Source: Promethearchaeota archaeon | GTDB lineage: Archaea > Asgardarchaeota > Lokiarchaeia > Sigyniarchaeales > SOKP01 | Direction of reading: 5' to 3' | Assembly (NCBI GenBank): GCA_019058295.1 | Contig: JAHPZI010000011.1 | Span: 1 to 17,025 of the forward strand | DNA length: 17,025 bases | In this document: positions 13,902-17,025 of the stretch, one piece after another | Position numbering within the stretch: position 1 is the stretch's first letter | How the letters are laid out: every line of letters begins with the position of its first letter | Program-made: the position numbers and the translations under genes | The notes under the pieces: model-generated | The model's database searches: none | Seen by the model: only the letters and a program-made list of their open reading frames with translations | Told to the model about the DNA's origin: nothing

Positions 13902-14948
13902 TTACTCTACTTTAACAATCCATCCATATTCATCTTCGATTTCTAATCTTTGAATTCCCGTTAATAAGTCGTAAAGTTTTATTGTTAATTCGCCCGGTTC
14001 TCCATTATTCCAGATTTTTTTTTTATCCTCTAAAACCACAGATCCAATTGGCGTGATAACAGCAGCAGTCCCAGTACAAAATGCTTCAGTACAAGTGTCT
14101 TCAAATAATTCCTTGTAAGATATATTTCTTTCTTCAACCTCTATTCCCAATTTCTTCTTTGCTATTTCTAAAACAGATTTTCGTGTGATTCCTGGTAAAA
14201 TTGTACCAGCTGCTTTAGGTGTGGCAAGTTTTCCATTGATGACCGCAAAAAAATTAGCTGTTCCAACTTCATCGATATATTCCATATTCACTGCGTCTAA
14301 ATATATAATCTGGGCAAATCCTTTAGCTTTCGTTTCTTTTGCAGGTTTCATTGTTGGAGCATAATTGCAACAAGTCTTCGCATAACCTGATCCGCCAGGA
14401 GCGGCTCTCGTATATTTTTTCGAAATTTCTAAATCTATTGCTTTAAAACCCTCTGGGAAATAAGGACCAACGGGGACTGTAAAAATTATTAATTTATTTT
14501 CTTCCGCTGGTGCAACACCTAAAATTGGACCATTCCCTATTAATATTGGCCTTATATATAACGCACCACCACTATCATAGGGAGGAACATAATCTTTATT
14601 GGCTTTAACGACTTGTTTAACATTATCAACAAATTTATCTACATCATAATTAGGTAATAGCATCCTATCGGCGCTGTCGTTAAATCTCTTTCCATTTTCA
14701 TGTGGTCTAAATAATACAATTTCGCCAGTTTTCGCTCTTAAGGCTTTCATACCTTCAAAAATCCCTTGTCCATAGTTAAGTATGCAAGCTCCAGGCGAAA
14801 TCTCAAAAGGTCCAAAAGGAACTAATTTTCCTTCGCTCCATTTACCATCCTTATAATCTGAAACAAACATCGTCTTAGTTTCAATAAAATTGAAACCTAA
14901 ATTATAAAAATCAATGTCACTTGCTTTCATATTTATCAACTTTCTCAT
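13902..14948 (-). CDS. ilvE: Branched-chain amino acid aminotransferase (PLP fold IV)
   Basis: YGQGIFEGMKA, LFRP, LYIRP, PLP Lys in AKTCCNY, EVGTANFF, ILPGITR, EAFCTGTAAVITP. Confidence 0.95.
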   Translation of the reverse strand: MRKLINMKASDIDFYNLGFNFIETKTMFVSDYKDGKWSEGKLVPFGPFEISPGACILNYGQGIFEGMKALRAKTGEIVLFRPHENGKRFNDSADRMLLPNYDVDKFVDNVKQVVKANKDYVPPYDSGGALYIRPILIGNGPILGVAPAEENKLIIFTVPVGPYFPEGFKAIDLEISKKYTRAAPGGSGYAKTCCNYAPTMKPAKETKAKGFAQIIYLDAVNMEYIDEVGTANFFAVINGKLATPKAAGTILPGITRKSVLEIAKKKLGIEVEERNISYKELFEDTCTEAFCTGTAAVITPIGSVVLEDKKKIWNNGEPGELTIKLYDLLTGIQRLEIEDEYGWIVKVE

Positions 14949-15071: not shown

Positions 15072-15971
15072 ATGTCCTTACAAAAAATGACTACAAAAAA
15101 AATAATAGAAAAAAAGCAAAAAGGCGAAAAAATCGTAACTATCACCTCCTATGACTATTCCATGGCGAAAATCGTTGACGATAGCAATATAGATCTAATT
15201 CTCATAGGAGATACTCTTTCTATGGTAATGCTAGGGCATCAAAACACATTACCGGTAACTATGGATGAGATGATTCATCATACTAAAGCTGTTTCCCGTG
15301 CAGTGAAGAATGCGTTAATTGTTGGCGACATGCCATTTCTATCATATAAAGTTAATATCGTAGAAGCAGTTAAAAACGCAGGAAGATTTATTCAGGAAGG
15401 TGGTGCTGAAGCTGTAAAAGTTGAAGGAGGTACGGAGATCTGCCCCACCATAAGAGCTATGATTGATGCTGATATTGAAGTAATGGGGCATATAGGATTA
15501 ACACCACAAGCGATATATAGATTTGGAGGATTTATGGTTCAAGGTAAAACAATCGAAGCTGCTAAGAAATTAATTATGGATGCTATTAATTTACAGGAGA
15601 CTGGTGTGTTTTCTATTGTTTTAGAGACTATCCCTTGGCAAATAGCAAAATTGATTACAAGTGCTGTAGATATACCAACGATCGGTATCGGCGCAGGCCC
15701 TTATTGTGACGGGCAAATACTTGTGATACATGATATGCTGGGAATCTTTACTGATTTCAAACCAAAATTCGTAAAGCATTTTGGTAATGTTGGAGAATCA
15801 ATTAGAAATGCTTTAAAAGGATATAGAGAAGAAGTTGAAAAGGGGATATATCCAGGACTCGAACATTCATATGAATTTCCACAGAATGAAGTGGATGATG
15901 TTAATGAATGGTTTGAAAAAGTTGATATTAATGAAGAAGCTTTGAAATTAAATAAAATGATACCAAAATGA
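15072..15971 (+). CDS. panB: 3-methyl-2-oxobutanoate hydroxymethyltransferase (ketopantoate hydroxymethyltransferase)
   Basis: [62 protein letters not shown]. Confidence 0.97.
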
Positions 15972-16248: not shown

Positions 16249-17025
16249 ATGGCTGATGAATATGATTATCTTTTTAAATCAATAGTAGTTGGAGATGGAG
16301 GAGTTGGTAAAACTGCTCTAACTCTACGATTTTCAAAAGGTTTTTTCACAGAAGATTATAAAATGACTATTGGTGTTGATTTTCACGTTAAAACTATTTC
16401 CATCGATACACAAGAAGAAGGTCAAATAATGGTAAAATTACAAATATGGGATACGGGTGGTCAAGAAAGATTTAGCTCAATAAGACCTATGTATTATAGA
16501 GGCGCTTTAGGAGCCTTATTAATTTTCGATCTCACTTCATATGAGAGTTTTGAACATTTGCCTCAATGGATTGAAGAAATTAGGTCAAATATAAAAAATG
16601 AAGTGCCTTTCCTTCTCGTTGGAAATAAAAGCGATTTAGTTGATATTAGAGCCGTTTCTTTAGAGGAAATCAATGATTTTACAGAAAAATTTAATTTATA
16701 TTATATGGAAACTTCAGCTAAAACAGGTGAGGGTGTAGGCGATTGCTTTTACATTCTTGCTTGTCTAATGGTCGGTTCAGGAGTTCCGGATCAACTTGTG
16801 TCAAAAGGAATTGTTAGTAGCCCTGGTAATGTGCTTGCTGCGACTTCAGCTCCAGTTGCCACTCCTTTAACTCAACAAGAACCAGAAGAATTTCTCGCCT
16901 ATGTAATAGAACCTGAACCACAAAATGATTTTGTAGCTCCACCGGTTCCTGAACCACAAAATGACTTAGCAGCTCCACCGGTTCCTGAACCACAAAATGA
17001 CTTAGCAGCTCCACCGGTTCCTGAA
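16249..17025 (+). CDS. Rab-like small GTPase with a Pro-rich tandem-repeat C-terminal extension (3' truncated by the window end)
   Basis: Manual translation gives 259 codons with no stop: MADEYDYLFKSIVVGDGGVGKT (G1)...TIGVDF (G2/RabF1)...KLQIWDTGGQERFSSIRPMYYRGA (RabF2, G3, RabF3, RabF4)...LIFDLT (RabF5)...GNKSD (G4)...ETSAK (G5). Absent from the ORF track because it has no stop codon in the window. Confidence 0.96.
   Translation, partial: MADEYDYLFKSIVVGDGGVGKTALTLRFSKGFFTEDYKMTIGVDFHVKTISIDTQEEGQIMVKLQIWDTGGQERFSSIRPMYYRGALGALLIFDLTSYESFEHLPQWIEEIRSNIKNEVPFLLVGNKSDLVDIRAVSLEEINDFTEKFNLYYMETSAKTGEGVGDCFYILACLMVGSGVPDQLVSKGIVSSPGNVLAATSAPVATPLTQQEPEEFLAYVIEPEPQNDFVAPPVPEPQNDLAAPPVPEPQNDLAAPPVPE
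16912..17025 (+). repeat. 36-bp coding tandem repeat, at least 3 copies, encoding PEPQND(F/L)(V/A)APPV
   Basis: Units at 16912-16947, 16948-16983 and 16984-17019, plus the start of a fourth. Units 2 and 3 are identical (CCTGAACCACAAAATGACTTAGCAGCTCCACCGGTT). Confidence 0.95.

Follow-up and report, generated by a model that had tools for sequence, protein, structure and literature searches.

A re-expanded conserved-motif array in the long tail of a Lokiarchaeial Rab-like GTPase, a probable tethered switch

The DNA analysed here, termed "the window" below, comprises the first 17,025 nucleotides of a 24.5-kb scaffold (JAHPZI010000011.1, in coordinates C11) from the genome of a Promethearchaeota archaeon of the class Lokiarchaeia (assembly GCA_019058295.1; 3.2 Mb in 30 scaffolds, GC 0.31, 79% complete). 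At its 3′ end lies the 5′ part of a gene for a Rab-like small GTPase, whose G domain is followed by a linker and by a tandem array of 36-bp units. An initial annotation, made from the letters of the window, had suspected that the repeat broke the assembly, and indeed the window stops exactly where a run of 100 N begins (C11:17026-17125) and metagenomic contigs break at the same repeat. The genome holds 20 scaffold gaps in total, two of which fall in this gene, both inside tandem repeats (of 36 bp and 66 bp). The parts of the gene are as follows:

16249..17025, + strand: 5′ part of the gene for the Rab-like GTPase (259 codons), taken from the list of open reading frames (ORFs); runs into the 100-N gap
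16276..16761, + strand: Rab-like G domain, defined by Pfam Ras, solved-structure matches and conservation
16762..16911, + strand: conserved neck (GSGVPDQLVSKGIVSSPG) that follows helix alpha-5, and a variable linker rich in Ser, Thr, Ala and Pro, defined by the conservation profile
16912..17025, + strand: tandem array of 36-bp (12-aa) units, defined by Tandem Repeats Finder (TRF), unit listing and motif statistics
C11:17126-17575 and C11:17676-18176, + strand: later pieces of the GTPase gene, the sole open frame in each; stop codon at 18177-18179

The first ~175 amino acids (aa) of the ORF match Pfam Ras PF00071 (E 7.3e-54, 182 bits against a cut-off of 21.6) and carry the motifs of a GTP-binding domain, namely G1 (GDGGVGKT), switch I (TIGVDF), G3 (DTGGQ), G4 (NKSD) and G5 (SAK). 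In alignments to Rab30 and Rab1A, three RabF-like motifs match (IGVDF, KLQIWDTGGQE and YYRGA) and two match nearly (RFSSIR and LIFDLT). The best solved structures are Rab30, Rab1A/B, Rab11 and Rab8 (E 1e-47 to 1e-41), all of the top 60 such matches are Rabs, and a Rab from Thorarchaeota (7ezb) matches the G domain with E 2.4e-42. Orthologous loci were collected from one genome per GTDB species, 80 loci in total, and 75 full-length orthologues from 75 species were aligned; most positions of the G domain are more than 90% invariant in this alignment, to which the conservation values below also refer. Judged by these matches, the protein has a G domain typical of Asgard Rab-like proteins and is a member of the Ras superfamily, of which the source genome has ~58 matches. 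The neck that follows the G domain contains three invariant residues (P180, P192 and G193), and the predicted local distance difference test (pLDDT) score of the model described below falls under 50 from around residue 198.

Directly 3′ of the Ser/Thr/Ala/Pro-rich linker (~16780-16911), TRF reports the sole strong array of the window (16912-17025; period 36, 3.2 copies, 96% matches, score 207). Unit 1 (16912-16947) encodes PEPQNDFVAPPV, units 2 and 3 (16948-16983 and 16984-17019) both encode PEPQNDLAAPPV and are identical in DNA, and six more bases (CCTGAA), either of a next unit or of a junction, lead to the last base of the window at 17025. The units are in frame with the ORF starting at 16249 (259 aa, 3′ end open), of which ~80 aa without a stop belong to the tail; a linker followed by at least three in-frame units, with the last two identical and no stop, is what the initial annotation had seen. 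The identical 36-bp units are also present in two independently assembled metagenome-assembled genomes (MAGs), L004 with four units and L005 with three, and a single contig of run X3 spans the entire three-unit array, indicating that a three-unit strain is present. Because of the units in these two MAGs and the bridging contig, the 36-bp repeat is a genuine array and not an assembly duplication. Copy number among close relatives of 91-99% identity is two, three or four: the protein P0005 (99% over the part encoded in the window) has four units, and relatives at 95% and 91% identity have three and two, respectively. Together with the DNA-identical units, these counts bear out a recent, length-variable repeat, though not an open-ended expansion, as the array is small with ~3-4 units.

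Past the first gap, the two later pieces each have exactly one open frame, of 150 and 167 codons, and a second run of 100 N lies 450 bp after gap 1, within a 66-bp repeat coding for Lys and Glu. We aligned Logan contigs of the best-matching sediment metagenomes onto the ungapped relative L004. The contigs of runs X1/X2 break at both repeats, and in an X1/X2 contig the repeat end ...GTTCCTGAA is joined directly to CCAAAAATCGAA, which are exactly the final bases of the window and the first bases past gap 1. The junction skips 39 nt, that is 13 codons, relative to L004; therefore the frame is kept across gap 1, and the gap can hold only further repeat units. On both sides of gap 2 the sequence keeps the register of the 66-bp unit. 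Compared with the ungapped P0005 (579 aa), the three pieces show identities of 256/259, 133/143 and 151/164, and the full architecture is visible in the ungapped relatives P0005, P0006 and P0007. The locus is one gene across two gaps, encoding at least 576 aa. Among the 80 loci, 76 have a complete ORF of 528-660 aa ending in a near-invariant CxxCGxxLSxDYxFCNKCG ribbon; the other four comprise one cut by a contig end, one with an N gap after the repeat region and two that are apparently broken (L076:6001-7449, 482 aa and without the ribbon; L080:6001-6153, 50 aa), with a frameshift, a mistake in assembly or genuine pseudogenisation as possible causes. Besides the source genome, two MAG assemblies have N gaps in or just after the same Pro-motif array (L013, at residues ~233-265 of a locus that is otherwise complete, and L073), which is thus a recurrent assembly breaker. 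Since both tandem repeats break short-read assemblies, the gene is easily truncated or split in annotations.

The complete tail is ~390-400 aa long and includes two regions of tandem repeats as well as some ten conserved islands. An acidic Pro-rich linker is followed by a Lys/Glu-rich helix of ~80 residues, a second linker and a CxxC-x10-CxxC ribbon, and across the orthologues unconserved stretches (0-30% identity) alternate with sharply conserved islands. The islands of the first linker are the repeated motif, EFEFKxPEEIL, YKPKxxPF, PxPAPxPEEF and SLxDYMPE; those of the second, after the Lys/Glu block, are FFQTxSQK, FxPF and KIIPNVADI. Net charge is about -23 in the acidic linker and +12 in the helix. 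AlphaFold2, run on the full-length protein with the orthologue alignment, predicts a folded G domain, pLDDT below 50 for residues 198-368 except at the EFEFK island, which forms a short helix, then a single helix without interruption at 373-453 (pLDDT 81-97), again values below 50 for 453-552, and 74-84 for the ribbon; the disorder proposed for the repeat region is thereby supported. Charged residues make up 79% of this long helix and hydrophobic ones 11%, and 29 of 77 i/i+4 pairs are of opposite charge, a composition that is predicted to give a single alpha-helix of the ER/K type rather than a coiled coil. The helix is encoded by an in-frame 66-bp repeat (22 aa, AIQEKEQAKLEKERKIQEEKER; C11:17400-17800, L001:2650-3060), the copy number of which varies between strains, with the X1/X2 contigs carrying one unit more than L004.

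What is repeated in the window is a minimal copy of a motif found throughout the family. Pooling 187 instances from the 75 species gave the consensus PEPE-x-[ED]-[YF]-x-A-P-P-V-P-E-P, in which eight positions are kept at 97% (Y/F), 98% (A), 100% (P), 98% (P), 95% (V), 100% (P), 98% (E) and 93% (P), and the spacers between the copies are only ~0-30% conserved. Two copies are present in 42 of the 75 proteins, three in 26, four in five, five in one and none in one; in most species they are spaced usually at 28 residues and their DNA has diverged. A tandem repeat can be detected at the DNA level in 18 of the 75 genes, with periods of 36, 51, 54, 57, 60 or 84 nt, and these differing periods indicate that arrays were re-expanded or homogenised independently across lineages. 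The genus of the window has the most compact form, a unit of 12 residues that is close to the bare motif, and in its expanded units the aromatic position is taken by Leu. The notion of an expanding repeat therefore stands for the compact 12-aa packaging, which is recent, and not for the motif itself, which is old and present in at least two copies in 74 of 75 orthologues. On the evidence of conservation, the multivalency of the motif is old and selected, and its packaging and copy number are young and variable; motif and ribbon are under strong constraint, and turnover affects the spacer sequence, the unit length and the number of copies. The units are no duplication of the assembly and the tail is constrained across orthologues, the two points on which the first proposal depended. 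The motif lies outside the known polyproline consensus classes that were compared. It has a PPVP core, but Glu and Pro in the flanks (E in 98% at +1, P in 93% at +2) and acidic residues upstream place it outside SH3 class I/II. In the EVH1 class I consensus, [FYWL]-P-x-phi-P, the aromatic residue immediately precedes the prolines, and the motif falls outside it since its aromatic residue stands three positions before the first Pro ([YF]-x-A-P-P-V-P). No WW consensus (PPxY/PPLP) fits either.

The last piece of the gene ends with CSQCGAMLSSDYAFCNKCGSKL followed by the stop codon, and here Pfam Zn_Ribbon_1 (PF13240) scores 28.8 bits (31.7 when the segment is excised), above its cut-off of 25. The four ribbon cysteines (C558, C561, C572 and C575) are invariant in the 75 orthologues, and in 76 orthologues the last Cys is part of a CxxC pair and lies 5-6 residues from the C-terminus. 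The protein ends ...FCNKCGSKL and has no prenylatable C-terminal cysteines (CC, CxC, CCxx or CaaX), and no segment of the tail comes near transmembrane hydrophobicity in any orthologue. It had been proposed that the repeat links to a further domain or a membrane anchor; the zinc ribbon is such a domain, and neither an anchor nor a transmembrane helix was found in the tail. Two more Rab-like paralogues in the genome, of 198 and 215 aa (C2:181694-182188, - strand, and C19:5877-6380, + strand), end in a terminal CxxC...CxxC ribbon after a tail of ~30 residues. That the ribbon caps two other, short-tailed Rab-like proteins suggests that it is a positioning module.

A different kind of C-terminal cysteine was seen in three other Ras-family paralogues with tails of 80-96 aa, which carry a CCxC cluster ~10 residues from the C-terminus. 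These clusters are not terminal and are thus not the canonical Rab CC/CxC signal, yet they bear on claims that Asgard GTPases have no C-terminal cysteines. Their positions are:

C20:77810-78283, - strand: paralogue with FFCCNCY...
C3:6174-6647, + strand: paralogue with IPCCRCF...
C3:7062-7469, + strand: paralogue with IPCCSCF...

Similar tails, for which a search had been suggested at the outset, turned out to be common in a narrow clade. A search limited to longer proteins returned hundreds of Asgard MAG proteins of 530-660 aa with both Ras and Zn_Ribbon_1. Using only the last 125 residues as a probe against a 400-genome sample of the phylum, we found the tail in 115 of the 134 genomes of the window's GTDB family, in single copy in all but three. 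Outside of this family there were two weak matches in 14 sister-family genomes, one further weak match (E 7e-6) and a sole strong one (C344:430-780, E 7e-23), and the probe matched nothing in the remaining genomes of the sample. The strong match is located on a short contig of genome G012, from a GTDB family (f13) that otherwise has none in 30 genomes, and may come from a misbinned contig. Within its clade, the family is the most Rab-like of the small GTPases and among the most conserved.

The gene order around the GTPase is also conserved, and reads class IV aminotransferase, panB, GTPase, a convergent gene for a protein with two ribbons, a decarboxylase dependent on pyridoxal phosphate (PLP), MazG and NrdD. 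The nearest of these neighbours are located as follows:

13902-14948, - strand: class IV aminotransferase
15072-15971, + strand: panB (ketopantoate hydroxymethyltransferase)
C11:18278-18886 (= L084:1279-1887), - strand: convergent neighbour gene, product P0123 (202 aa)
C11:19145-20323, - strand: PLP-dependent decarboxylase

Synteny of the aminotransferase, panB and decarboxylase neighbourhood is kept in 57-69 of the 80 loci, and the three genes plausibly form a cluster for pantothenate and coenzyme A precursors. In 78 of 80 loci, the genes for P0123 and the GTPase are arranged tail-to-tail. In P0123, whose relatives mostly have ~260 aa, a central FN3/CBM-like beta-sandwich stands between two terminal zinc ribbons; a search of a protein atlas matched only its own Promethearchaeota cluster and no named family. 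Assignment to a specific fold family was rejected, because the best Z of 8.7 was tied with many unrelated sandwiches, which leaves a generic beta-sandwich. A complex prediction of the full-length GTPase (A1, with GTP and Mg) and P0123 (A2) scored 0.20 against a mark of 0.32 and counts neither way. RNA folding of the 3′ intergenic region gave z = 0.41, with nothing found.

Taking these observations together, we favour, as somewhat more probable than its alternatives combined, the reading that the repeat is a recently re-expanded array of a conserved motif in the tail of a single-copy Lokiarchaeial Rab-like GTPase that acts as a tethered molecular switch. The ribbon, at the place where eukaryotic Rabs carry prenylated cysteines, would be a docking knob by which the protein is held at a partner or site, and the charged helix with the disordered segments would form a long spacer giving reach. 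The repeated motif would offer multivalent sites, binding a putative dedicated reader by avidity, the G domain at the free end would switch effectors by its GTP state, and replication slippage would change the number of docking sites between strains. A more specific version, which we put forward tentatively and consider unlikely, is positioning without lipid: the ribbon would dock to a partner fixed at the membrane or the cytoskeleton, for which the neighbouring P0123 is a candidate, the tail would act as a giant hypervariable region and the motifs would recruit effectors by avidity.

Several observations weigh against the tethered-switch reading. The motif occurs in no other protein of the source genome, and there is thus no motif network pointing to a shared reader. 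Pfam SH3_1, WW and WH1 were undetected in the 79%-complete genome, although the WW and WH1 profiles matched nothing in control genomes either and their absence is thus not shown; together with the acidic flanks, this leaves the SH3-type PxxP ligand of the initial annotation unsupported. The profilin match in the source genome is weak (18.5 bits, below cut-off), and profilins of Loki are reported not to bind the polyproline of VASP (PMC8410842). The Leu in the expanded units, at a position that is Tyr or Phe in 97% of instances, may make them weaker sites, and the 12-aa copies abut without a spacer, which may block simultaneous binding by several bulky readers. Transcription is only hinted at by partial gene contigs of 95-99% identity in an RNA library (run X15), in which DNA carry-over is possible.

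Some of these points would equally suit a tail that works as an entropic spacer only, with no specific partner, where selection keeps an extended, acidic, polyproline-II-like linker of about the right length and slippage is neutral. Copy number and unit length do vary freely, disorder is predicted for the region, the genome yielded no reader domain and within it the motif is unique to the GTPase; however, a linker of this kind is hard to reconcile with eight positions, the aromatic residue and Val included, kept at 93-100% over the 187 instances while the spacers around them drift, and we regard it as rather unlikely. We give slightly less credit to an intramolecular regulator, in which the acidic array folds onto the basic helix or onto its own G domain and the resulting autoinhibition or compaction is released by the GTP state. 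The opposite net charges of the adjoining segments (-23 against +12), the failure to find an external reader and the extreme conservation of G domain and neck would all be in keeping with it, but the AlphaFold2 model of the full protein keeps the motifs below pLDDT 50 and gives no indication that they dock, which is a weak argument since fuzzy electrostatic contacts are not modelled.

The remaining two alternatives concern the DNA itself and are both highly improbable. Had the assembler or scaffolder made the identical units out of a single true one, an array abutting a scaffold gap, with short-read contigs that break inside it, is what one would see, but tandem units in two independent MAGs (four and three units) and the X3 contig bridging a three-unit array contradict this. 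The collapsed repeat contig of X1 (58 nt) has a depth of 53 compared with 19-24 in its flanks, the direction expected for several copies, although only as a weak hint because Logan contig depth does not equal copy number. It could likewise be argued that the GTPase ORF ends in gap 1 and that the Lys/Glu-rich and zinc-ribbon proteins are independent, giving two or three separate genes, as the deposited scaffold places the three pieces in different frames and the middle one contains an ATG-started ORF of 110 aa. The frame across an N gap of arbitrary length, however, carries no information, the X1/X2 contigs join gap 1 in frame, and an uninterrupted ORF is found in 76 of the 80 loci.

Compared with eukaryotic Rabs, the GTPase has the EYDYLFK N-terminus, all G1-G5 motifs, the catalytic Gln and the RabF-like motifs, and likewise a potential positioning element at the extreme C-terminus after a flexible region. 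The hypervariable region of Rabs has ~30-40 aa; the tail described here differs in its ~400 aa with conserved repeats, a long charged helix and a C4 ribbon instead of prenylation cysteines. ER/K single alpha-helices serve as spacers in myosin VI, myosin X and caldesmon, and the charged segment of ~80 residues resembles them as a predicted single helix, with the difference that it derives from a 66-bp repeat of strain-variable copy number. Multivalent proline arrays are found in ActA and zyxin (FPPPP, for EVH1) and in Sec31 and TANGO1 (PPP, for Sec23); the likeness is in the several tandem acidic-aromatic-proline motifs within a disordered region, and the difference in the motif consensus. Arl13b and RABL6 are large members of the small GTPases with long disordered C-terminal tails, which share the N-terminal G domain, a helical segment and a proline-rich region with our protein, but belong to other subfamilies and have no zinc ribbon and no homology in the tail. 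With Zn_Ribbon_1/DZR (PF13240, PF12773) the ribbon shares the CxxCG-x9-FCxxCG-xxL signature, and it differs in that here it caps the C-terminus of a small GTPase. The Haloferax GTPase ArvA, with a zinc-ribbon protein encoded in its operon (PMC10927574), offers a loose parallel.

Archaeal Rab-like GTPases with the same kind of G domain, from the same phylum, have been described before (Surkont and Pereira-Leal, 2016, PMC4915359; 7EZB, Tran et al., 2024, PMC10933270), and archaeal Rab-like proteins were stated to be without an extended C-terminal region, terminal cysteines or a localisation signal (PMC4915359, PMC10933270). The conserved ~400-aa extension ending in four cysteines sets the present family apart, and its architecture contradicts the published statements on archaeal Rab-like C-termini. 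As the initial annotation had supposed, this architecture is not described in either of the two papers, and a literature search of incomplete coverage found no description of a Rab-like G domain combined with a long tail and a zinc ribbon. Peptides of the motif, the ribbon and the product of the neighbouring gene are concrete reagents for finding partners. The positioning of Asgard Rab-like proteins without prenylation bears on the origin of eukaryotic membrane trafficking, and if the tentative reading of positioning without lipid is true, archaeal relatives of eukaryotes would possess eukaryote-style docking through short linear motifs, with a valency that is tuned per strain by slippage.

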